Below, piece by piece: positions 8,631 to 60,259 of a DNA stretch of 64,000 nt. Positions within the stretch are counted from its first letter, which is position 1, and every line of letters starts with the position of its first letter. The position numbers were made by a program, and so were the translations under genes. The notes beneath the pieces were generated by a model. That model was not told the DNA's origin and did not search any database. It saw only the letters and a list, made by a program, of their open reading frames with translations. The stretch is from Ignavibacteriota bacterium (GTDB lineage: Bacteria > Bacteroidota > Ignavibacteria > UBA10030 > UBA6906). The stretch spans positions 702,103 through 766,102 of the forward strand of contig JADJHP010000001.1 in the NCBI GenBank assembly GCA_016707525.1, written 5' to 3'.

Positions 8631-8685
8631 GTCATTGCATCTTCACGTGATCGACCATACCCCTTAGGCTGTTGTCGATCGGTTG

Positions 8686-8758
8686 TGCACCCACCAGGAC
8701 TCGAACCTGGAACCCACTGATTAAGAGTCAGTTGCTCTACCAATTGAGCCATGGGTGC
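8686..8758 (-). tRNA. tRNA-Lys (anticodon CTT).
   Basis: Minus-strand sequence GCACCCATGGCTCAATTGGTAGAGCAACTGACTCTTAATCAGTGGGTTCCAGGTTCGAGTCCTGGTGGGTGCA has a 7-bp acceptor stem, D-loop AATTGGTAGAGC, anticodon loop CTCTTAA and T-arm GGTTCGAGTCC. Coordinates are +/-1. Confidence 0.85.
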
Positions 8759-12377: not shown

Positions 12378-13079
12378 TCAGGCTTTGAAGCGATAGCCGA
12401 CGCCCTTGATCGTTTCGATCACGTCGGCATCATCGCCCAATTTCTCGCGGACCTTCCGGATGTGCACGTCCACCGTCCGGTCGACCACGATCACCTGGCT
12501 CCCCCAGATCGTATTCAGGAGCATCTCGCGCGTGAAGACCTTCCCCGGGTGTGCGGCAAGCAGCGCCAGTATCTCGAACTCTTTACGGGGAAAGAACACA
12601 TCACGTTCCCCGATGCGGACGCTGTAACTCCTCCGGTCGATGGTCAGGCGGCCCTGGTGGATCGTCGGGGGCTCATTCGCATCGTCGCCGCTCTGTTCGC
12701 GCCGGCGCAATACCGCCTTCACGCGGGCAACGAGTTTCCGCGGACTGATGGGCTTCTGGATGTAGTCGTCGGCTCCGAGCTCGAGCCCTTCCACTTCGTC
12801 CACCTCGCGCGAACTCGCCGTGAGAAAGATCACCGGAATGCCGGCGGTCCCGGGCGTGGTCTTGAGCTTCTTGCACGTGGCAAAGCCGTCCAGCACGGGC
12901 ATCATCAGGTCCAGGATCACCAACGCGGTGCCGTTCCCTGCCTGGGCAAGAGCTTCCTTCCCGTTGTAGGCCGTCGCAACCTCATACCCTTCTTTGGTGA
13001 GGTTATACCGGATCAACTCAACGATGTCCCGCTCATCGTCGACGACGAGAATCCGCTTTGGGTCCGGGGCCGTGCTCAT
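12378..13079 (-). CDS. OmpR/PhoB-family response regulator.
   Basis: Receiver domain ILVVDDE...LDLMMP. Winged-helix trans_reg_C (GYRF C-terminus). Confidence 0.85.
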   Translation of the reverse strand: MSTAPDPKRILVVDDERDIVELIRYNLTKEGYEVATAYNGKEALAQAGNGTALVILDLMMPVLDGFATCKKLKTTPGTAGIPVIFLTASSREVDEVEGLELGADDYIQKPISPRKLVARVKAVLRRREQSGDDANEPPTIHQGRLTIDRRSYSVRIGERDVFFPRKEFEILALLAAHPGKVFTREMLLNTIWGSQVIVVDRTVDVHIRKVREKLGDDADVIETIKGVGYRFKA

Positions 13080-14086: not shown

Positions 14087-16002
14087 CTATCCGACGGTGA
14101 GTGAGGATGAGGGATGAAGGACCGAGCGGACGACCGCTGCGATCCCGGGGCCATCCAACCCGAGTTCATCAGCAAGTTCCGCAGGAGATCCGTGGTCTAC
14201 GAAACGGTCAGGGATGCCGTGCATCGTAAGGCGGGTACCCGCATGACCGGCTGCTGCGACGAATTCGCTGACCGCGCCGCCAAATCCGCCCAGGACAGAG
14301 TTGTTCTCGACCGTGACGATGGCCTTGAACCGCGAGAGAATGTCGTCCAGCAACGCCCCGTCCAGCGGCTTCACAAAGCGCATGTTCACGACCTCGCATT
14401 CGATGCCTTCATGCGCCAATGCCGTCGCCGCCTGCAACGACGGCGCAACCATGTCTCCGATCGCCAGGATCGCGACATCCTTCCCGGTCCGGAGGATCTC
14501 CCCTTTGCCGACCGGCAACAATGTGAAATCCGGCTTCAGGGGCACACCCAGACCGTTGCCGCGTGGATAGCGTATCGCCACCGGCCCGCCCGTATGCTTC
14601 ACGGCGGTGTACAGCATGTCCCGCAATTCGCTCTCATCCTTCGGCGCCATGATCACCATGCCCGGAATGGGGCGCAAATAGCTCAGGTCGAACACGCCGT
14701 GATGCGTCGGGCCGTCGGCCCCGACCACCCCCGCTCGGTCAAGAGCGAAGATCACGTGCAGATGCTGCAACGCCACATCGTGGATGATCTGATCGAACGC
14801 ACGTTGGAGGAACGATGAGTAGATCGCAACGATCGGGATCGCACCCTGGGTGGCGAGTCCCGCAGCGAAGGTCACGCCGTGCTGCTCCGCGATCCCGACA
14901 TCATAGAAACGTTCGGGCATCTCACGCTGCAATTGGTCGAGGCCGGTCCCATCCGGCATCGCCGCGGTCATCGCAACAAGGTTCGGTGTCTGCCGGGCAA
15001 GGTCGACCACCGCGGTACCGAACACTTTGGTGTACGCCGGCGGCCCGCTGGCTTTCTTCGGCGACACGCCCGTCACCTTGTCGAACGGTGTCACACCGTG
15101 CAGCCGCTGTTCGTCCAGCTCGGCGGGACGATACCCCTTCCCCTTCTGCGTGATCGCATGGACGAGGATCGGTCCCGACAGGTCCTTCACCTCCTGAAAG
15201 ATACGGACGAGCTGCGCCATGTTGTGGCCATTGATGGGTCCGAAGTATCGGAAACCCAGGGCCTCGAAGAGCATGCCCGGCGTGATGATGACCTTGATGC
15301 CTTCTTCGAGCCGCGCCGTCACGCGGCGGATCCGGTCGCCCCACTGTCCAGCTTGCCCGTGAGATCGTACACATTCTTCTTGAAACGGTTGTAGCGCGGA
15401 TCGGCGATCAGCTCGGTGAAATAGTTCGAGATCGCCCAGACGTTCGGGGCGATGGACATGTTGTTGTCGTTCAACACGACGATCATGTCCTTCTTCATGA
15501 AGCCGGCATTGTTCATCCCTTCATACACCATGCCGCCGGTCATGGAGCCGTCGCCGACGATCGCCACAACTTTGTACTTCTTGCCGGACGTTTCCCGTGC
15601 GGCGACCATACCGACGGCGGCCGAGATGGCCGTACTGGCGTGGCCAGCACCGAAGGTGTCGTATTCGCTCTCCGAACGCTTGAGGAAGCCGCTCAGTCCG
15701 TTGTACTGGCGGATCGTATGGAGCCGGTCCTTGCGGCCGGTGAGGATCTTGTGCGGATAGGCCTGATGCCCGACATCCCACACCAATTTGTCGTACGGTG
15801 TGTTGAACACATAGTGCAGGGCAACGGACAACTCCACAGCGCCCAGACCGGCACCAAGGTGCCCCCCCGTCCTGGAGATGACCTCGATGAGGAATTCCCG
15901 CACATCGTTGCTGAGGCCTTTGAGTTCAGGGACCGTGAATCCGCGGAAATCCGCGGGCACGTTCACCCTGTCAAGGTACGGATATGATTGCTGACCGCTC
16001 AT
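14087..16002 (-). CDS. dxs: 1-deoxy-D-xylulose-5-phosphate synthase, interrupted by a 1-nt frameshift near 15320 (N-terminal 227 aa and C-terminal 411 aa in different frames).
   Basis: N-terminal ORF has the TPP-binding region GHLGAGLGAVELSVALHYVF and GDGSMTGGMVYEGMNNAG. C-terminal ORF (GTG start overlapping the first ORF's TGA) carries the transketolase pyrimidine and C-terminal domains. Both parts belong to one Dxs. Confidence 0.8.
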
Positions 16003-16245: not shown

Positions 16246-17436
16246 TTAGATATCCGTTATGGTAGAGCGGACAGTCCCATCCGCGAATTCGATCTCGACC
16301 GCATCATCGACGGCGATACCCTTCCGTTTTCCCGTGATCCTCCCCTGTTTCCGGACGATCGCATATCCGCGTTTCAGGACGGACCGGGGATCCAACGCAT
16401 TCAGGCGCTCGGTCGTTCCGCGGGCTCGTGCGGCGGTGAGTTCAAACAGGTGGGAAAGGGACGTTGACATGGAGCGGGTCAGTTCATCCAGATGCTGGCT
16501 ATGCCGGGCGAGCAGGTCCACAGGCCTGTTCAGAGCGTAACTCTTGAGCATCTGCTGGATGTGGCGCCTGTGGAGTGCGATCCGGTCCTCGATGGCACTC
16601 GACATAGTATACCGAGAATTCTCCAGAAGTTCAATCAGTGCCCGCCGGTCGGGAACCGACATCTCCGCCGCCGCCGTGGGGGTCGGGGCGCGGAGATCCG
16701 CCACGAAATCCGCAATGGTGACATCCACCTCGTGCCCGACACCGCTCACGATGGGGATCCGGGATCCTGCGATCGCCCGGGCCACGATCTCCTCGTTGAA
16801 GGGCCAGAGATCCTCGAGCGACCCCCCGCCGCGGGCCAGGATGATAAGATCAAGTCCGCCGAGCCGGTTCAGATCAGCGATCGCCTCCGCTATGTCCTGC
16901 CCCGCCCCCGCACCTTGCACCCGGGTGGGCCGGAACACGAGCGATGCCACCGGATACCGCCTCCGGAACACATGCAGCATATCATGGAGGACCGCCCCCG
17001 TCGGCGAGGTGATCAGTCCGATCTGTTCGGGATATGGCGGAAGCGGACGCTTCCGCCCGGGATCGAACAGCCCTTCCTCCATCAGCTTCCGTTTCAGTTC
17101 CTCAAAAGCCTGCTGCAGGTCCCCGGCACCAAGGGTCCGCATCGACGTCACATCGACCTGATAGGTCCCACGAACCTCATACACCGTGATACGGCCCTGG
17201 ACCACGACCTTCTGGCCGTCGGCCGGGCGGAACTTCAGCGTGGGGACGCGACTTCGCCACATCACGCCGGAAAGTTGGGCCGCTTCGTCTTTCAACGTGA
17301 AGTAGAGGTGCCCGGAAGAATGGAGTTTCACATTGGAGAGTTCGCCAACGATGGCCAGCGACGGGAACGTCCGCTCAAGGGACAACTTGATACGCTGTGT
17401 CAGCGCGCTGACGCTGAGTGGTGCCTGGTCCGCCAT
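16246..17436 (-). CDS. xseA: Exodeoxyribonuclease VII large subunit.
   Basis: OB-fold N-terminus (VWISGEISN-like ...IVGELSNVKLHSSGHLYFTLKD) and catalytic core. ATG at 17436; the track ORF starts at an upstream TTG (17466). Confidence 0.8.
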   Translation of the reverse strand: MADQAPLSVSALTQRIKLSLERTFPSLAIVGELSNVKLHSSGHLYFTLKDEAAQLSGVMWRSRVPTLKFRPADGQKVVVQGRITVYEVRGTYQVDVTSMRTLGAGDLQQAFEELKRKLMEEGLFDPGRKRPLPPYPEQIGLITSPTGAVLHDMLHVFRRRYPVASLVFRPTRVQGAGAGQDIAEAIADLNRLGGLDLIILARGGGSLEDLWPFNEEIVARAIAGSRIPIVSGVGHEVDVTIADFVADLRAPTPTAAAEMSVPDRRALIELLENSRYTMSSAIEDRIALHRRHIQQMLKSYALNRPVDLLARHSQHLDELTRSMSTSLSHLFELTAARARGTTERLNALDPRSVLKRGYAIVRKQGRITGKRKGIAVDDAVEIEFADGTVRSTITDI

Positions 17437-18266: not shown

Positions 18267-18704
18267 ATGCCGTCCCTGCACCCCATGCTTGTCCACTTTC
18301 CGGTGGCGCTCCTCACGGTAGGATGGCTCGCGGACCTTTTCGCGTACGTTCGGGGGAGGAAACAAGGAAGCGTTGTAGGGTGGTGGAACGCGGTCGCGGG
18401 AACAGCAGGAGTGCTGGCATCGGCTGCCAGTGGCCTCATGGCAAAGAGTGCCGCGGGTGCGCTGCCGGTGATGCCGGCAGCGGCCCTGTCAGATCATGAA
18501 CAACTCGCCTTCGCCTCGTCCGTGGCATTCCTCCTGCTCACCGGGTGGCGGTTCTCGTGCCGGCGCGAGCTCCCGCCGGGATCACCGCAACTCTTCCTTC
18601 TTCTCACCGGCGCGGCTCTCCTCCTGCTCTGGATCACGGCGCACATCGGTGGCACTCTCGTGCACGAATTCGGCGTCGGGGTCATCGCTGCTCCCCGACC
18701 GTAA
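18267..18704 (+). CDS. DUF2231-like membrane protein (4 TM).
   Basis: N-terminal HPMLVHFPVALL motif and four predicted TM helices. Family assignment is from memory. Confidence 0.45.
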   Translation: MPSLHPMLVHFPVALLTVGWLADLFAYVRGRKQGSVVGWWNAVAGTAGVLASAASGLMAKSAAGALPVMPAAALSDHEQLAFASSVAFLLLTGWRFSCRRELPPGSPQLFLLLTGAALLLLWITAHIGGTLVHEFGVGVIAAPRP

Positions 18705-20408
18705 CGCCCCCGACCGGATCCCGCGCACCTTGACATCGCCGGCCCGCCGCACGATCGTGACCGCCACACCAACGAGCAGAATGATCAATCCGGCCCACAC
18801 AAGATTGATGAGCGGCTTGACACTCGCCTCGGCGACCAGCATCTCACGTGACGCCCCTGACGCTGCCGCCCCGGACTCTTCCAGCCCGAGGGGCGCAAGG
18901 TAAAAGTCCCGGTCTTTCAGGTTCGCAATATCCGGGTTACGCATCACGTTCTGCATGTACTCGCTGTTGAACATGATCGGCGACAACGTGATCGCGTGCC
19001 CTTCCTTCTCGACCCGCACATCGAACCTGAATTTTCCGTCCTCGGTCGGCCGCTGTCCCATATACGTCAGGGTGTAGCCGAGTGCCTGCGTCGGTGTTCC
19101 CAGGGGAAGCGACACCGTCTCGGTCCCGCCGAACCGCGAGGACGACACGAACCCGAGGAACATGACCGCCATACCGATGTGGGCGACCGCCCCGCCGGCC
19201 ATCTTCGGATTCCCCTTCACGATGGTCCAACCGGCCATCAGGTTCACCACGAGCGCGAACGAGGCGCCAAACACGAACAGTATGAGGAGCGGGTCTCGGG
19301 AACCGGCATACAGCATGACGGGCACCGACAGCAATGCGACTCCTGCCGGGATGAGAAGTGTGCGGAGCAGCGCCGACCGGTCCGAGCGTGTCCACCAGAG
19401 GAGCTGCCCGAGTCCCATCAGCAGTCCCAGGAGGATCCCGAGCGGGACGATCGTGGTGGCATAGTACGAGATATCGACGGCACTTTTCTTTCCATACAGC
19501 ACCTCGGTGATGATCGGCGACGAGGTGCCGACGATCACGAACACGGCGATGAAGACGAGGGTCGAGGCTCCCAGGAACAGCGCGAATTCGCGCGAGTAGA
19601 TGCTGTGTTTCGCCGGACGCCGCGGGATCTCCTTCCACCGTCGCACGAAGAGGACGATGGGCGCACCGATGGTGATGATCAGCATGCCGATCAGGAGCCA
19701 GTATGCTGCCATGCCGGGCTCCCCGAAGGAATGCACCGACGTGTCGCCGAGGACACCGCTCCGGGTCAGGAACGTCGAATACACGACCAGGATGAAGCAG
19801 AGCATGCCAAGTTTCAACAGAGCAGCCATTGCATAGGAATACGGCACAGCCATCGATGCAAATCCGCTGAAGAGGACCTGCGGGTGGATCACCATCCAGT
19901 AATTCTGCAGGAGGGGGTTCAGGCCCCGTCCATCGGCCGGAACGAATCCGGGTCCGACCTCGGCGAAGGATTCCCAGACGTACAGGAACGGGTTCTTCAC
20001 GAGCAGCATCACGAGCAGAATGAGTTCGATGCCCATGAACACACTCATCACCTGAGCTTCGTAGCCGACGCGCGAGGAATGGCGGAGGAGAAAGATGCCG
20101 ATCACCGCAGTGAACAGCGCCCAGAGGAGGAAGCTGCCCTCCTGCCCTGCATAGAACGTCGAGATCAGGAGGGGTGTGGAGAGCGCGCGTGAGCTGTAGC
20201 TCCACACGTACGAGTACTGGAATTGATGGGTGAGGATGAGGTACAACAGAGTTGCGGCACTGGCGGCGACCATCACCACCGTGCCGTGGAAGAAGAGACG
20301 TCCGAAGAGGAGTGACCGGTCCGTGGCTTTGAGGTGATGCCGGATGTAGCCGGCGACCGAGAGTAGGGCGAACACGAATGCGACCTTGACGAATATGCCG
20401 CCGAGCAT
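18582..20408 (-). CDS. ccmF: Cytochrome c-type biogenesis protein CcmF, atypical: lacks the WWD/TM-His1 segment. Its 3' end overlaps the convergent DUF2231 ORF.
   Basis: Conserved CcmF blocks FYAGQEGSFLLW, GRGLNPLLQNYWMVIHPQVLF, LTRSGVLGDTSVHSFGEP and GGAVAHIGMAVMFLGF are present. The ~85-90 aa that normally carry WGGxWFWDPVEN and the first TM heme-b His are absent (in-frame). SD AGGAG lies 8 nt upstream. Confidence 0.75.
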   Translation of the reverse strand: MLGGIFVKVAFVFALLSVAGYIRHHLKATDRSLLFGRLFFHGTVVMVAASAATLLYLILTHQFQYSYVWSYSSRALSTPLLISTFYAGQEGSFLLWALFTAVIGIFLLRHSSRVGYEAQVMSVFMGIELILLVMLLVKNPFLYVWESFAEVGPGFVPADGRGLNPLLQNYWMVIHPQVLFSGFASMAVPYSYAMAALLKLGMLCFILVVYSTFLTRSGVLGDTSVHSFGEPGMAAYWLLIGMLIITIGAPIVLFVRRWKEIPRRPAKHSIYSREFALFLGASTLVFIAVFVIVGTSSPIITEVLYGKKSAVDISYYATTIVPLGILLGLLMGLGQLLWWTRSDRSALLRTLLIPAGVALLSVPVMLYAGSRDPLLILFVFGASFALVVNLMAGWTIVKGNPKMAGGAVAHIGMAVMFLGFVSSSRFGGTETVSLPLGTPTQALGYTLTYMGQRPTEDGKFRFDVRVEKEGHAITLSPIMFNSEYMQNVMRNPDIANLKDRDFYLAPLGLEESGAAASGASREMLVAEASVKPLINLVWAGLIILLVGVAVTIVRRAGDVKVRGIRSGALRSGSSDDPDAEFVHESATDVRRDPEQEESRAGEKKEELR

Positions 20409-20489: not shown

Positions 20490-20885
20490 TCACGATGCCT
20501 TGCCCGTGACCTCTGCCCCCGTGGCCTCGTACTTCGATGGGCACTTCGTGAGAACCTCCGAGGCGTGGAAGGAGCCGTCGCCGGTGAACTTCCCCTTTGC
20601 GACGACACTCGTTGCCATCTCGAAATTGTTCGGCGCCGCGCCGTCCAGCACCACCTTGCACTCGCGTCCGGCATCATCCACCAGATAGAACGTGAACTGG
20701 CTCGTGGAGGGATTGAACGCGGAGTCCTTCTCCCGGTTCCACGTGCCTTTCAACTGGACCTTCTTGTTCTTCGCCATGGCTCCGGCGATGTCGGTATATT
20801 CCACGTTGCTGTCCATGAACGAATACGCCCCGAACCCGAGGAAGACCAGTACCACGATGGACCCGATGATCATTTTAGCATTCAT
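20490..20885 (-). CDS. ccmE: Heme chaperone CcmE, CxxxY variant.
   Basis: N-terminal TM anchor and OB-fold. C-terminal VLTKCPSKYEA aligns to canonical VLAKHDEKYmP, so Cys (codon 20541..20543) replaces the heme-binding His. Confidence 0.8.
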   Translation of the reverse strand: MNAKMIIGSIVVLVFLGFGAYSFMDSNVEYTDIAGAMAKNKKVQLKGTWNREKDSAFNPSTSQFTFYLVDDAGRECKVVLDGAAPNNFEMATSVVAKGKFTGDGSFHASEVLTKCPSKYEATGAEVTGKAS

Positions 20886-20901: not shown

Positions 20902-21045
20902 CTACCCGTTGTTCTCAGTGGTACGTTCCAGTTTTTTCAAGCGTCCATCGAGGCGCCAGAGATAGGCGAACAGGCCCAGCCAGATCCCGACCACGATGAT
21001 CATGACGATGTACAGCTGATGTTCGGCAAGGAACTCCACGGTCAT
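20902..21045 (-). CDS. ccmD: Heme exporter protein CcmD (47 aa). Not in the ORF track because it is under 60 aa.
   Basis: MTVEFLAEHQLYIVMIIVVGIWLGLFAYLWRLDGRLKKLERTTENNG: single TM, CcmD-like. Its ATG overlaps the ccmC stop (ATGA). Confidence 0.55.
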   Translation of the reverse strand: MTVEFLAEHQLYIVMIIVVGIWLGLFAYLWRLDGRLKKLERTTENNG

Positions 21046-21740
21046 CCTTTCGACTGATGATGATACTCAAGCAACGCGGCGCGCACGCGCAGCGTGAACA
21101 TCCAGATAAAGAGCAGCGTGAAGGCGAAGAGCGACGTGAAGAACACCATGCGCATGCCCGGCGACATCTTGAACTCGATCACCGGCCCCGCGCCATCGGG
21201 GTCGCCCGCCGCACCGGGATGCAGCCCCGTCATGATGCGCGGCATGATGAACACGAAGAATGGGACCGTCACGGCGGCGATGATCGAATAGACGGCGGAG
21301 AGCGTTGCGCGCTTTTCTTCCACCTCCACTGCCGAACGGAGCGCGAAGTAGGCGCCGTAGATCAGGAGCAGCACGAAGATCGATGTCTCACGGGGATCCC
21401 AGTTCCAGAACGAACCCCAGTTGAACTTCGCCCAGATCATTCCTGTCACCGTCGCCAGGATGCAGAACAGGAGCCCCAGTCCCGCTGCTGCCGAGGACCG
21501 GAGGTCATCCCGGATATCGCGTTTCCGGAGATAGCGGATCCCGTAGAACATCCCGGTGAAGAACGCCATGACGCTCAGCCATGCCGTCGGGACATGGAAG
21601 AAGATGATGCGGGCCTTTTCTTCGAGGCCGGGGATGAAGGGGAACTCCAGCAGTGATGTCGGCGCCGGGACGATGGGGAGTGCAAAAGCGGCAACGATCA
21701 CCAGCGTGAGAAGGATACCGAGAAGAATCCGCCACACCAT
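21042..21740 (-). CDS. ccmC: Heme exporter protein CcmC.
   Basis: WWD domain WGSFWNWDPRETS and flanking conserved His residues; 6 TM. Confidence 0.85.
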   Translation of the reverse strand: MVWRILLGILLTLVIVAAFALPIVPAPTSLLEFPFIPGLEEKARIIFFHVPTAWLSVMAFFTGMFYGIRYLRKRDIRDDLRSSAAAGLGLLFCILATVTGMIWAKFNWGSFWNWDPRETSIFVLLLIYGAYFALRSAVEVEEKRATLSAVYSIIAAVTVPFFVFIMPRIMTGLHPGAAGDPDGAGPVIEFKMSPGMRMVFFTSLFAFTLLFIWMFTLRVRAALLEYHHQSKG

Positions 21741-21742
21741 AC

Positions 21743-22438
21743 TCAGTCTTTCCAGATGTACTCAAAGAGCATATACGACGCAGTCACCACGACGACAATA
21801 TACGAAATCAGGACCTGAAATTCACCCCCGACATCCGTCCATGCGGTCCCCTCGCAGGCCATCCGGGTGGTCCGGATCGCGGTCATCAGGACAGGTAACA
21901 ATATTGGGAACGATAAAACGGGGTAGAGGGTTCCCTTCGTGTTCGCCCGCGCAATGATCGCAGCGATGATCGTCGATGCCGCAGAGAGCCCGATGCTTCC
22001 CAGCGCGATCCCGGCCGCGAACACCCCGTAGGAGGTGACGACGAATCCGGAGATGAACACCGCGTACAGTGCCACGGTCAGAAGCGTCAGGCCGGCACCG
22101 AGCAGCAGATTGAAGAGCAGCTTCCCGAAATAGACGGCACTCGGTGGCGCCTGCAACTGCAGCGTCATCGAGGTCCCACGCTCTTCCTCCATGACGAACG
22201 TCCTCGACAGGCCGGACATCGCCGCGAAGAAGATCACCACCCAGAGCATCCCGGCAAGCACCTCGAGCGACGGGGCCTCACCGGCAAGCGAGAACATGAT
22301 CATCGAGAGGGTGGTGACGACGAACATTCCGAGCGCACTGATCGCGTACCGCGTGCGCAATTCCGAGCGCCAATCCTTGAGAAACACCGCAAGGGTGGAC
22401 CGTAGCCACCGGCCGGCAGAGCGTTCAACGGCGGGCAT
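21743..22438 (-). CDS. ccmB: Heme exporter protein CcmB (ABC permease).
   Basis: CcmB-family 6-TM permease (FLKDWRSELRTRYA...). Start at the internal Met (22438), overlapping the ccmA 3' end; the track ORF's upstream extension is rich in W/R/C and unlikely to be coding. Confidence 0.75.
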   Translation of the reverse strand: MPAVERSAGRWLRSTLAVFLKDWRSELRTRYAISALGMFVVTTLSMIMFSLAGEAPSLEVLAGMLWVVIFFAAMSGLSRTFVMEEERGTSMTLQLQAPPSAVYFGKLLFNLLLGAGLTLLTVALYAVFISGFVVTSYGVFAAGIALGSIGLSAASTIIAAIIARANTKGTLYPVLSFPILLPVLMTAIRTTRMACEGTAWTDVGGEFQVLISYIVVVVTASYMLFEYIWKD

Positions 22439-23054
22439 TGAGATCCACCTCCCTGTCCGGTGCCGCGAGATCCGTCCTGTCGTTGGTTGCCACCACCAGG
22501 ATCCCCTCGCGCAATTGATCCTGCATGATCCCGCGTACGATCGCGATGCCATCGGCGTCCAGGTTCGACATGGGTTCATCCAGCACAAGCACCGGTGGCC
22601 GGTGTATCAGCGCCATGGCATATTTCAACCGCTGCTTCATCCCGGAGGAAAATCCGCGGACAGGGTCCGTGCGCTTCGGGTCGAGAGCGACCTGTTCCAA
22701 CAGCTGCGATGCGCGTCCATCATCCGGCCGGGCTCCCCGGAGGGTCATGCTCATGTGGAGGTTCTCCATTGCCGAGAACTCCTCATACACCTGGAGATAC
22801 GGTGCGACCAGACCGAGGCGGCCCAGCACCGCGAAATGATCGCCGGCATCATCCGCGTGCACGGTGACCCTGCCCGATGTGGGCGTCAGTACGCCGCAGA
22901 GGATCTTGATGAGCGTCGATTTCCCTGCCCCGTTCCGGCCGGCGATCATCAGGGAGTGGCGCGCGTGCACATCGAACGACACGTCCCGGAATATCAGCTT
23001 CCTGTTGAACGAGTGCCGGATATTCTCACCGCTGATGTGTAGCGCCACGCTCAC
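22425..23054 (-). CDS. ccmA: Heme ABC exporter ATP-binding protein CcmA.
   Basis: Walker A GRNGAGKST; ABC signature FSSGMKQRLKYA; Walker B VLVLDEP. Confidence 0.8.
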   Translation of the reverse strand: MSVALHISGENIRHSFNRKLIFRDVSFDVHARHSLMIAGRNGAGKSTLIKILCGVLTPTSGRVTVHADDAGDHFAVLGRLGLVAPYLQVYEEFSAMENLHMSMTLRGARPDDGRASQLLEQVALDPKRTDPVRGFSSGMKQRLKYAMALIHRPPVLVLDEPMSNLDADGIAIVRGIMQDQLREGILVVATNDRTDLAAPDREVDLNARR

Positions 23055-24721
23055 CTCCTCACCAGTGCGATCTTGCCCGTCACCCGCCTGTCCCCGAGGT
23101 CGATCACGTAGATGTAGATGCCGGATGGGACCGCGGATCCATCCGTTCCCTTGCCATCCCAGAAGAACATCTGGCGGTCCAGATACCAGGACGACGAACT
23201 TGTCCCGGACGTGTAGACCGGGTCCAGCCCGCTGGAGAAGACGGATACGCTGCCGGTGACCTGATCCGTGCCATCCACCGGCATGGCCGCACGCGCGTGG
23301 TTCCCCGGCAAGAACGGATTCGGGAAGGCCCGGCCTTCGGCAAATTGCGACGCATCGATGTTCCGTCGGACGGTGTCGCCTACGACGAACCAGCTCGCCC
23401 AGTGCACGGGCGTGGCGACGCCGAGATGTGCGAACAGTCCGATCGGTGTTATGCGGTATCCGTCATTCGGCCGCGTCGACCGGAAATCGAATGCGTAATC
23501 CTTCCCCGCCGCTTGTGCCGTCGCGGCAGCAAGGTCCACGTTCGCCACGATCACGGTCATGGTATCCGGGGACCGCATGAGCTGATAATACCGCGCAGCG
23601 AACGGTGCGAGGCTCCCGGTGATCTCGCGCGAGGGAGGCCTGTACTCCACCGGGATCTCCATCATCAAAGGATAGTCCGCGGCGTCCGGATAGTACTTCG
23701 AGGGCTCGCTGCGTGTCCCGGTGAAATGATTCCACAAACTCCAATCGGCGAAGGCTCCCTGCGCATCATACCCTTTCGTTCTCAGCGCCCTGTCGATCGC
23801 CGCCATCGGCGCCATCGCGCGGATCTGCTCCCAGGTCGTTCGCATCATATCGCGCCCGTACCGTGCGGCGATGTAATGCCCCCAGATGCTCCGGCTATAG
23901 CAGATCAGGTCGTTGGAAGTGAACGCCCTCTCCGGTGTCCGGAAATGCCCCCAGGACGCCTTCAGGTATTCGTAGTAATCGTTGACCTCCGGATACAGCA
24001 CATCCTCCATCCATGTGGATGTGATCTCATAGAAGAACACGTCGTTCTGCCAATACCCGTAGTTGCCGATCTGGAGGGCATGATGCAACTCGTGCGCGAT
24101 CGTGACGTGCAATGCAGGGAGCCCACGGTTCACGGCCGGATGGACGAACGCGTAGTCGTTGTCGATGGTCATGAACGTGGTCGCCGTCCCGCCATCCGGC
24201 GGGGAGCCATCCGGCGTCGTGTATCCGTACATGCTTCCCAGTTCCATGATGAAGACATCGTATTCCGGGCCCCCGTTCAACGTATCGTCGGACGGAAGGA
24301 CGCCATACCCGAGCACCTGTGTCTCGATCGGTGCCACGTACGCCAGGCTCGCGAAGACGGAGTCCACATAGGCGCGTGCAGTTCCGGGCACCGCCGCGCC
24401 GGTGCCATCGAGCAGCGTGGGCGTGTTGAACCCCGTGGTATCGAAATGCACGCGGAACCCGGAACGGACCAGGCTGGTCTGCAGGAGTGGACGCGACAGC
24501 ATCGTGGATGCGGCACCTGCCAGCACGCGTCCTTTCACGCTCAGCGCGTTGGTCACGGCAGAGAGGCCGCATTTAATCGGCTCACCTTCGGGGGGCAACT
24601 GAGCGCTGTTCCCGAGCAATTGCGCGGCGGCATCATGCACCATGCTTCGCTCCTGCGCGTGCGCGGTGAGGGCACACGCGCCGAGGATGCAAAGCGCAGA
24701 CAGGAGCCGGAGTGTGATCAT
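23051..24721 (-). CDS. Secreted HExxH zinc metallopeptidase-like protein with a T9SS C-terminal sorting domain.
   Basis: Signal peptide MITLRLLSALCILGACALTAHA. HELHHALQ...(22 aa)...E fits a HEXXH-X(n)-E zincin pattern. C-terminal ~80 aa (...SGIYIYVIDLGDRRVTGKIALVRR) matches the T9SS CTD consensus. 4-bp overlap with ccmA. Confidence 0.55.
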   Translation of the reverse strand: MITLRLLSALCILGACALTAHAQERSMVHDAAAQLLGNSAQLPPEGEPIKCGLSAVTNALSVKGRVLAGAASTMLSRPLLQTSLVRSGFRVHFDTTGFNTPTLLDGTGAAVPGTARAYVDSVFASLAYVAPIETQVLGYGVLPSDDTLNGGPEYDVFIMELGSMYGYTTPDGSPPDGGTATTFMTIDNDYAFVHPAVNRGLPALHVTIAHELHHALQIGNYGYWQNDVFFYEITSTWMEDVLYPEVNDYYEYLKASWGHFRTPERAFTSNDLICYSRSIWGHYIAARYGRDMMRTTWEQIRAMAPMAAIDRALRTKGYDAQGAFADWSLWNHFTGTRSEPSKYYPDAADYPLMMEIPVEYRPPSREITGSLAPFAARYYQLMRSPDTMTVIVANVDLAAATAQAAGKDYAFDFRSTRPNDGYRITPIGLFAHLGVATPVHWASWFVVGDTVRRNIDASQFAEGRAFPNPFLPGNHARAAMPVDGTDQVTGSVSVFSSGLDPVYTSGTSSSSWYLDRQMFFWDGKGTDGSAVPSGIYIYVIDLGDRRVTGKIALVRR

Positions 24722-26941
24722 TGCGAGAACGCCCCCGCGTGCACGGTGAGGGTATGTTTCCGTGGATGACTGAGGACGACGTCAAGCAGTCCGGTGACCG
24801 GCGAGATCCGAAGCCCAAAGTGCTCCGCCCCGTGCGCCGGCAGGACAAGGACGGGCTCGGAGAAGCGCCTGTGCCCGAGGCCGAACAACGCGTAGACCCC
24901 GTCCCGCGCACCATCCATGTAGACAACGTCGGCCCGGCCGTCTCCGTTCACATCGCGGACAACCATGCCATCCTCATCGATCGGATCGATGCCTTCGACC
25001 ACGATGGGGTCCAGCTGCACGCTTCCCCCCGAATCGCCATACGCAACGTACATCCTGCGCGAGGGTGCGCCGGTGAACATCAAAAGGTCAGGAAGACTGT
25101 CGCCATCAACGGCGCCGCTCCCCAACAGCTTGATGCTCAGGGTCGAGTCAGGCAGAGTGACCAGGCGCTGGATCTTTCGAAAGTCATAATTCGCCTGCGC
25201 CGGCGCCAATGCGACCGACGACGCTCTGGGCGGACGTTCGCGGAACGCCAGAACGACGTCCGGCTTGCCATGTCCCGCGAAGGACCCGGAGGCCATCGAG
25301 GTGATCGTCACAGGCAGGGAAAAGCGGTACGAGCGTTCCACGAACTGCTGGCCGGAGATCTCCTGATACAACAGAAGTGGTGGCTTGCCGGACGTACCGT
25401 TGCCACTTCTGATCCCTATGACGAGCCGCCCTGTGATGCGGTCGGTCTCGGCCATCAGGAACCGGGGTCCCGGCGGTGTAGGAACCATCAGGACGCGGGA
25501 GCGTTCGAAGCGTTCGGCGCGACGGATGACGCCGATCTGATCCGTCGTCGGATCCACCGTCACGATCGTCCACGGACGCGGGAATTCTCCGGGTACGACG
25601 CGGACATCTTCAGGCTCACCCGGCACGGTAAGTGTCCGTTGCCCGAAGAGCCTGCCTGGCGTCGTCCCTTCGAACAGACCGATGCTCGCCGACCCATTGT
25701 TGGCGACGAGGATATCCTCGACACCATCGCCTGTCCAGTCCGTCACGGTCACCGCTGCCGGCCGCACTCCGGTGGCATACTCCGCGGGCCACGCTGCAAG
25801 GCCGGTTTGCTGTGCATTCCCGAGGATGACGATACGACGATCGCGTTCATCAGCAAGGACAATGTCGGTCTTCCGGTCACCGTCCACATCTGCGAGCGTC
25901 CACGACGGGCTTCCGGCGCCGGCGCCGAACAGTGTGAGTGGCCCGAACGTGGTGCTTGTTGTACCCAGTGCCACAGCGAGACCATTCGTCGTACTCACGA
26001 CCATATCCGGAAGCTGGTCTTCGTTGACGAGCGCAAAACTGACGGCACCGGGATGACCGGAGAGCGGGATCGTATCCCGGAGCACGAGTTCCCCTGCCGG
26101 ATTGCCAACGACATGGAGCACGGCATTGTTCGCAGGAAGGGTCACGAGGAAGCGCAGCACCTGTTTTCGTTGCACGGGCATGAATGCGATGCGGCCCGGC
26201 TCACCGGGAAGTGCGAGCGTCACCTGTTCGGAGAACTGATATTGACCGATCCCGAAGTACACCGCAAGCCGGTCCGAGAGCCATTGCACGAGCACGAGGT
26301 CCATGATCCTGTCGCCGTTCAGGTCTGCGGCCACCAGGTCGCCGGCCGACGTCTCCGGAAAGAGCAACGGCCCCTGCTTGAACGAACCGTACCGTCCCCC
26401 CCACGAGGGTGCCCACCCCCGCCATATTCCTGCCGAAATAGAGAATGTCTTTCCTCCCATCGTTGTCGATGTCGGCAACGACGAGGCGTTGTGCACGCTG
26501 GTCGAGACGGAACAGCGTACGTTGCCCCTGTCCTTCTCCGGGCCGCTGTATCTCGATGTGGCTCCCATCTTCGCTGAGGATGACCAGCTCTTCATTGCCA
26601 TCCGCATCGATATCGGCGAGCGACAGAAAGCCGGGCTGGCGAGCAGTGGCATACGAGGCCACCGCCACGCAATGCCCGCCGGAGGTCAGAGAATATTCAT
26701 CCACGCCGGTGCGCCCGTTGTATGCGACCAGGATGGTCGGCAATGGTGCGAGTGCTGAGACATGCACTGCGACAGCGACGGGAACGCCGGGGGTACCGGT
26801 TTCAACGTACGGGCCGAAGGATACGCCGGAGCGCTGCGAATACGCGGCGTACGCCCAGAACAGATGAGCCGCGAACACGCCCATGACGAGGTCACGTGAG
26901 CTACGGATGCGGTGCTGCAATGTGCTGTACGGTGCAACCAT
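24718..26941 (-). CDS. FG-GAP/VCBS-repeat (integrin-alpha-like) secreted protein, split by a frameshift at a C7/G7 homopolymer (~26396..26402).
   Basis: Signal peptide MGVFAAHLFWAYAAYS. Repeated DxDxDGxxD-type motifs (ADIDADGNEELVIL, VADIDNDGRKDILYFG, AADLNGDRIMDLVLV, ADVDGDRKTDIVLA, VNGDGRADVV). The two ORFs 26201..26941 and 24718..26652 are consecutive parts of one protein. Confidence 0.6.
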
Positions 26942-58838: not shown

Positions 58839-60259
58839 TCACCGGGGGTTGACAGCCAGGAGCTTACGCTCCGTCATCTCCTCCATTGCATAGCGCACGC
58901 CCTCCCTGCCGAACCCGGAACCTTTGACGCCCCCGTACGGCATATGATCCATCCGGTATGTCGGGACATCATTCACGATCACGCCGCCCACTTCCAGTTC
59001 TTCGAATGCGCGGAGCATGTGCCGGAGATCCGGAGTGAACACTCCTGCCTGCAATCCATACATCGAGTCATTGACCCCCGCCAAGGCCTCATCGAACTCC
59101 GCATACGATCCGACAGTAACGATCGGTGCGAACACTTCCTGAGAGCATACCTTCATGTCCGGGCGAACGTCCGCAAGGATGGTAGGCTCCAGGATGGCGC
59201 CGTGTCGCCGTCCGCCACATAACACTTTCGCACCTCCGGCTATGGCCTCTGTGAGCCATCCCTCCGCCTGTTCAGCAGCCTGCGCGGTGATCATCGGCCC
59301 CACCACGGTATTCACATCCCAGGGGTCGCCGGTTGCCAGGGCCTTCACCTGCGGGACGAGCAGCCCGAGGAATTCTTCTTCGTGCTCCCGGTGCACAAAC
59401 ACCCTCTGCACGGAGATGCAGGATTGGCCTGCATTCGCAAAACCGCCCGCAACCACCTTCCCGGCAGCGAACGCAAGGTCCGCCCCCCGATCAATGATCA
59501 CTCCGGCATTCCCGCCCAATTCCAGCGTCACCCGTTTCTTGCCTGCCCGGGACTTCATCGGCCAACCGATCGCAGGACTTCCCGTGAAGGTGATAAGGGC
59601 AACCCGTTCATCTTCAATGAGTTGACCAGCTTCATCTCCCGCGCAGGGTAGCACTGAAATCATCTCCACAGGAAGGCCACTCTCCAGAATGATCTCCGCA
59701 AAAGGAGTGCCGTCCCGGGCGCGTTCGATGATGGCTTCACCACCACAGGGTTCCCTGTGGCAAAGGCCGGGGCCGCCTTATGCGCCACGAGGTTCAGGGG
59801 GAAATTGAACGGCGTGATGGCTGCGATGGGGCCGATCGGGAAGCGCTTGACGAGGGCGAACCGCCCGGCGGACGCCGCATTCATGTCGAGCGGGAGCATT
59901 TCGCCGTAGATCCTCCCCGCCTCCTCCGCCGCCGTCCGGAATGTGAACTCACTCCTATCGACTTCCATCCTGGACAGCGTGATCGGCTTGCCGGTTTCCC
60001 GGGTGATCATCGCAGCGAGTGCCTCCTTCCGCGCCCCGATGCCCCGCGCGATGGCATAGAGCGCATCCACGCGCTGATGGCTGGCGAGGCTGCGCGACGT
60101 CCGGAATGCACGCACGGCACCGGCGAGGGCGTCGTCAATATCCCGCTTCCCCGCCTGACACACCTCTCCCGCCACCGATCCGTCGAAGGGGTTGAGCACC
60201 GGGCGCGTGTGCGCGGTGGTGCGCCATGCGCCACACACCAGGATCGGTCGGGCCCCCAT
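58839..60259 (-). CDS. Aldehyde dehydrogenase family protein, frameshifted near 59690..59710.
   Basis: N-terminal ORF (VLNPFDGSVAGEV...PVVVKPSSNAPGTALLL) and C-terminal ORF (EMISVLPCAGDEAG...ELGGNAG...GQSCISVQR catalytic Cys...) are contiguous ALDH sequence in different frames. Confidence 0.7.

Follow-up and report, generated by a model that had tools for sequence, protein, structure and literature searches.

A private 80-codon gap removes the WWD loop and TM-His1 from CcmF in a single Ignavibacteria assembly

In the 64-kb stretch of Ignavibacteria DNA analysed here (the window), ccmF encodes a protein without the WWD loop and the first transmembrane heme b histidine (TM-His1). The gap is private to one assembly and is no lineage trait. 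ccmF here is an ordinary member of the Ignavibacteria ccmABC-D(alt)-E-F operon that codes for CcmF as a single polypeptide, with a private deletion in that one assembly. Since the gene is complete in all other assemblies of the species, the deletion points to an assembly error or a very recent dead allele, and not to a new kind of enzyme.

Results

The ccm operon in the window

ccmF is the last gene of a compact operon, with ccmA, ccmB, ccmC, ccmD_alt and ccmE directly upstream. The features are as follows.

18582..20408, minus strand: ccmF ORF, 608 aa, with an internal in-frame 80-codon deletion
19811..19812, minus strand: ccmF deletion junction (K199/L200); 240 bp present in all conspecific contigs are absent between these two bases
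20490..20885, minus strand: ccmE, intact, Cys-type heme chaperone with CPSKY instead of HxxxY
20902..21045, minus strand: ccmD_alt, 47 aa, intact, identical to conspecifics
21042..21740, minus strand: ccmC, intact, with its own WWD loop (WGSFWNWDPRETS), protein identical to conspecifics
21743..22438, minus strand: ccmB, intact
22425..23048, minus strand: ccmA, ABC ATPase, intact

CcmE differs between the window and its conspecifics at one residue, and its heme motif, C115-P-S-K-Y119 (window 20529-20543, minus strand; protein end ...VLTKCPSKYEA), conforms to CXXXY. This sequence in place of HXXXY is the mark of the Cys-type variant System I of Desulfovibrio and Archaea (PMC9084895), and the operon is a Cys-CcmE 'variant System I'. 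Neither ccmH nor ccmG adjoins it. A second Cytochrom_C_asm gene was not found in the window, and none of the window's main ORFs contains CXXCH. The arrangement of Cys-CcmE and CcmD_alt without adjoining ccmH or ccmG is kept in all the relatives fetched.

The window CcmF lacks exactly 80 residues

The window protein is identical to NCBI MBK7256797.1 (IPI01_03050, annotated as 'hypothetical protein'), from an Ignavibacteriae MAG with an 845-kb contig, and forms a one-sequence cluster (P0001). By orthology, operon context, a CcmF_C domain and three of the four conserved histidines it is a member of the CcmF/NrfE family; as encoded, it is without two defining features of that family, the WWD-bearing domain and TM-His1. 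A sequence-only reading had already described it as a CcmF devoid of both, and Pfam, the alignment to the Thermus thermophilus CcmF structure (6ZMQ) and the orthologue alignments all bear this out as a definite gap and not a chance effect.

In Pfam, CcmF_C (PF16327) is complete, at 109 bits over profile positions 2-321 of 323, and Cytochrom_C_asm (PF01578) is matched only over positions 5-98 of 212, at 20.4 bits, below its curated cutoff of 29.9 bits; the profile comparison thus agrees with the earlier description. The intact orthologue P0002 reaches 102 bits against Cytochrom_C_asm, over positions 5-206. The motif WGGxWxWDPVEN is absent from the window CcmF ORF. Like canonical CcmF of E. coli and T. 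thermophilus, the window protein is encoded by the last gene of a ccmABCDE-F operon and has a complete CcmF_C, both periplasmic histidines (P-His1 and P-His2) and the second transmembrane histidine (TM-His2). It is collinear with 6ZMQ over both halves (E = 9e-34), residues 1-198 aligning with 22-212 and residues 203-540 with 297-633. In this structure-sequence alignment ~84 residues of 6ZMQ (~213-296) are without counterpart, and with them go the WWD loop, TM-His1 and two membrane helices.

Alignment with the conspecific orthologues puts the gap at exactly 80 aa (R200-V279 of P0002), or 240 bp, and shows it to be codon-exact. The earlier estimate of ~85-90 aa was therefore slightly high, the gap itself being real, and the interval in which it had been placed, 19700-19900, includes the junction. 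Four elements make up the missing block, namely a membrane helix, the WWD loop, the helix with TM-His1 and the next cytoplasmic loop, and W230, E247 and H262 of P0002, the equivalents of E. coli W229, E246 and TM-His1, all lie within it. Loss of H262 (ALVHTIL) leaves one of the two transmembrane histidines, TM-His2, at H410 (AVAHIGM). The two periplasmic histidines, which in CcmF lie on either side of the WWD loop, P-His1 at H175 (VIHPQ) and P-His2 at H226 (SVHSF), are kept and align with their 6ZMQ equivalents.

The rest of the gene is well preserved, with no stops or frameshifts. The nine amino-acid differences between the window CcmF and P0002 are all at positions variable among relatives, and outside the dense SNP tract described below the gene has 9 synonymous and 8 nonsynonymous differences, all at variable positions and in numbers too small to speak for or against relaxed selection. 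Microhomology at the junction is at most 1 nt. The intact ccmF allele has no direct repeats at the deletion endpoints, which argues against repeat slippage as the cause of the deletion.

At its other end, the 3' tail of ccmF overlaps the 3' end of a convergent DUF2231 gene (18267-18704, plus strand) by 123 bp (window 18582-18704). L002 and L084-L087 show the same overlap in their gene calls, and close relatives keep the charged tail of CcmF.

The relatives listed carry the block in ccmF

The species is also represented by four independent short-read contigs that come from different samples (L001, L087, L088 and L089, one of them labelled as a wastewater metagenome). They match the window at 98.3-99.2% nucleotide identity over 11-18 kb, in the same gene order. 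All four encode an intact CcmF of 688 aa (P0002, P0122-P0124) that includes the 80-aa block. P0002, the best match after the window protein itself, is 98-99% identical to it. Both Pfam domains are present in all 119 other homologues listed, and the relatives listed are single polypeptides of 664-797 aa with both domains, the exception being a 495-aa fragment (P0014) from a 2.3-kb contig. The block is also present in distant relatives (L002 and L083-L086, at 75-88% protein identity). When genome contigs were searched with P0002, the 80 loci listed were all at most 60% identical to it, with no close relative among them.

One of the distant relatives has a separate, small event of its own. The L002 ccmF (L002:8001-10034, GCA_030835135.1) is short of 11 aa directly ahead of the WWD loop. 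The missing stretch is bounded precisely by the copies of a direct repeat, GGGCGGGTAYTGGGCGT, at a spacing of 33 nt; either slippage or, in that MAG, collapse of the repeat accounts for the loss.

The lost module was also sought elsewhere. In the 64-kb window, tblastn with the lost 80 aa and blastn with the lost 240 bp gave nothing beyond noise and the WWD loop of CcmC (21372-21476, E = 0.001 in tblastn), so a stand-alone WWD ORF, as proposed from sequence inspection, was not met with there. A degenerate codon pattern for the junction (AMAALLK-LGxxCF) had 0 matches in the JGI metagenomes. Exact look-ups of P0001 and of the private CcmE variant V7I, which would identify independent contigs of the window strain, gave no record.

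A private SNP tract ends at the junction

Immediately 5' of the junction, in the sense of the gene, lies a tract in which the window departs sharply from its conspecifics.

19812..19875, minus strand: hyper-divergent tract, 12 window-private SNPs in 64 bp

Such clustering has a Poisson probability of ~1e-16 against a local background of ~0.4%. Looser divergence continues past the tract, to 19923, and beyond the junction the match to L001 is 100% over 240 nt. The conspecifics do not have the tract, except for the AAA codon at the junction (19812), which is also found in L088. Eleven of the 12 SNPs are synonymous and the remaining one gives A185S; because the tract is almost purely synonymous, it represents genuine homologous coding sequence of a diverged ccmF allele, and not noise. 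It is 80-86% identical to the ccmF DNA of each of six relatives (L001, L002 and L083-L086), and its source is therefore unsampled; an exact 24-mer from the tract likewise had 0 matches in the JGI metagenomes.

Over all compared sequence, the window differs from the conspecifics by 155 synonymous and 52 nonsynonymous substitutions, and this predominance of synonymous changes indicates real strain differences rather than noise. Relative to the near-clonal L001/L087/L089 group, the window strain is a recombination mosaic, and since its mosaic tracts are many and mostly synonymous, recombination with relatives is evidently common in the lineage. Other dense private tracts, also mostly synonymous, lie at 14223-14534 (dxs), 12810-12912 and 16313-16435; One example has 25 SNPs within 310 bp, where the background is 0.4-2%.

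Structural variation within the species was seen at another site. The conspecific contig L096 has an insert of ~8.1 kb (L096:7890-15997) at window 8685-8729, beside the tRNA at 8686-8758, which is the single hit in an Rfam scan of the window. The insert is flanked by duplicated 45 bp that overlap the tRNA and codes for a 2338-aa FG-GAP/Big_5 protein; L098, L099 and L101 are collinear with the window at this site.

Private frameshifts in the same contig

Conspecific contigs cover ~35.5 kb of the window. Three 1-bp indels in this part, each at a short homopolymer, are private to the window, and none of them occurs in the conspecifics.

15345, minus strand: 1-bp deletion in dxs (GGACCAG to GGACAG), leaving ORFs 15319-16002 (227 aa) and 14087-15322 (411 aa)
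26396, minus strand: extra G in an FG-GAP gene (24718-26652), G7 versus G6 in four conspecific contigs; 644 aa instead of 740
59699, minus strand: 1-bp deletion beside a T4/A4 run, breaking an aldehyde dehydrogenase gene (473 aa; ORF 59660-60259) that is intact in L090 and L091

In five conspecific contigs dxs is intact and encodes 638 aa. Its frameshift in the window adjoins 8 private, mostly synonymous SNPs at 15308-15338 (31 bp). The G7 run in the FG-GAP gene looks like a homopolymer consensus error, and the three frameshifts together are the typical error profile of an incompletely polished long-read consensus; from the homopolymer indels and the length of the 845-kb contig, we infer that the source MAG is of long-read origin. 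SNP-dense tracts make up roughly 3% of the compared sequence, so that coincidence is an unlikely reason for two of the four lesions (the three frameshifts and the ccmF deletion) to lie at tract edges. The tract at 14223-14534 is dense and lesion-free.

Predicted effect on the product

In E. coli CcmF, synthase activity depends absolutely on W229 and E246 of the WWD domain, and the structural heme b has TM-His1 and TM-His2 as its ligands (PMC10746174). The deletion would strip CcmF of its catalytic core, from the helix that precedes the WWD loop, through that loop and the TM-His1 helix, to the next cytoplasmic loop. Since the helices are lost in an even number, the shortened product could still enter the membrane. 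It would be unable to hold heme b by two axial ligands or to position the heme delivered by CcmE, and would for these reasons be an inactive heme lyase. On the strength of the published E. coli mutagenesis, the deleted CcmF is thus predicted to be inactive as a holocytochrome c synthase.

Comparison with naturally split CcmF

Plant mitochondrial CcmF is split as CcmFN1, CcmFN2 and CcmFC, the part with the WWD domain and the heme b histidine being CcmFN2. The likeness to CcmFN2 pointed out in the sequence-only reading is apt for the content of the missing segment, and misleading as a guide to the biology here. In Methanosarcina, CcmF is naturally split into CcmF1 and CcmF2, with the WWD/heme b histidine part on its own polypeptide, CcmF2 (PMC9084895). 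In these split systems the separate polypeptide carries the part that is missing from the window CcmF, whereas the 64-kb window holds no such separate piece. The window operon shares Cys-CcmE with the variant System I of Desulfovibrio and Archaea and here has no ccmH or ccmG adjoining it; however, the archaeal system has no CcmD and has CcmF in two genes, whereas in the Ignavibacteria clade a CcmD_alt ORF is present and CcmF is one fused protein. As the split state is absent from all relatives, a split gene has no evolutionary support.

Discussion

Of the three explanations first offered for the gap (a WWD-less CcmF that works with a separately encoded piece, a degenerate heme lyase, and an assembly deletion), the latter two remain. 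In our judgement the 240-bp deletion most likely originated as a consensus or assembly artefact at a strain-variable site, a reading to which we give somewhat better than even chances. Where co-assembled strains differ sharply, the consensus would break and give rise to indels or, as here, a larger loss. The contig is demonstrably error-bearing, with its three private frameshifts; the deletion is confined to this assembly, the four conspecific contigs encoding the full protein and the 119 other listed homologues having both Pfam domains; and lesions coincide with strain-variable tracts both in ccmF (12 SNPs in 64 bp) and in dxs (8 SNPs in 31 bp). The dxs case is a parallel: the gene is normally essential and its frameshift, if real, would probably be lethal. 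Moreover, the locus is undecayed, with ccmA-E intact and ccmF free of stops, and a null mutation in the catalytic core is implausible as the consensus of an abundant strain. This case for an artefact is, however, circumstantial. Long-read consensus errors are normally of 1-2 bp, and a clean, codon-exact loss of 240 bp without a flanking repeat is atypical of them; other SNP-dense tracts, such as that at 14223-14534, are lesion-free; and the tract adjoining the ccmF junction is genuine diverged sequence, so that tract and deletion could equally be the outcome of one real recombination event.

That event would make the deletion a real and very recent null allele, a reading that we hold to be a serious contender, at rather less than an even chance. 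By this route, a related species (~80-86% identical) would have supplied ccmF sequence through a homologous crossover upstream, around codons 161-178, and the other end would have joined illegitimately at codon 280, removing the 240 bp. The tract, 11 of whose 12 SNPs are synonymous, ends exactly at the junction, and the far side is identical to the conspecifics for 240 nt; mosaic tracts are frequent in the window strain, with its 155 synonymous versus 52 nonsynonymous differences; strain-level structural variation exists in the species, as in the 8-kb insert by the tRNA in L096; and a clean deletion of this size is not what sequencing error usually produces. Against this reading, illegitimate joins anchored by homology usually use at least 3 nt, whereas the microhomology at this junction is at most 1 nt. 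Loss of the core of the only visible heme lyase ought to carry a heavy fitness cost, and yet it stands in the consensus of a strain abundant enough to yield an 845-kb contig, and the rest of the operon is without decay. A tract with an indel at its edge is also seen at dxs, a gene whose real disruption would probably be lethal, and the ccmF junction is absent from every other assembly examined. A WWD-less protein that keeps some role is an even less likely version of a real deletion.

A functional WWD-less or split CcmF, with the WWD/TM-His1 module supplied in trans by a CcmFN2-like or CcmF1/CcmF2-like piece or by the WWD loop of CcmC, we regard as highly improbable. In its favour, the reading frame is kept and helices are lost in an even number, which preserves the downstream topology; CcmF is split in plants and in Methanosarcina; and the operon is of the same Cys-CcmE class as the archaeal system, without an adjoining ccmH. 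An in-frame outcome, however, has a one-in-three chance for any deletion, under any model, and therefore does not discriminate. Against a trans-acting piece, the module is in-line in all relatives, including the four conspecific assemblies at 98-99% nucleotide identity; in the window no ORF resembles the lost segment, the CcmC loop (E = 0.001) being the only match; and the junction pattern is without a match in the JGI metagenomes. The proposal of a WWD-less CcmF complemented by a separately encoded piece thus found no support in the 64-kb window or in the relatives.

Were the lack of the WWD domain a trait of the lineage, it would be a remarkable finding, since heme ligation by System I has its catalytic heart in the WWD loop and TM-His1. 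The window ccmF gives no ground for proposing a new heme lyase class, a split ccmF in bacteria or an organism devoid of c-type cytochromes, and the main value of the case is the caution it offers about a single error-bearing MAG contig. A real deletion would mark a strain of environmental Ignavibacteria in which System I cytochrome c maturation has only just been lost, one without System I heme ligation and living without c-type cytochromes unless a second lyase is encoded elsewhere in the genome, and it would be a modest example of a very young null allele tied to inter-species recombination.
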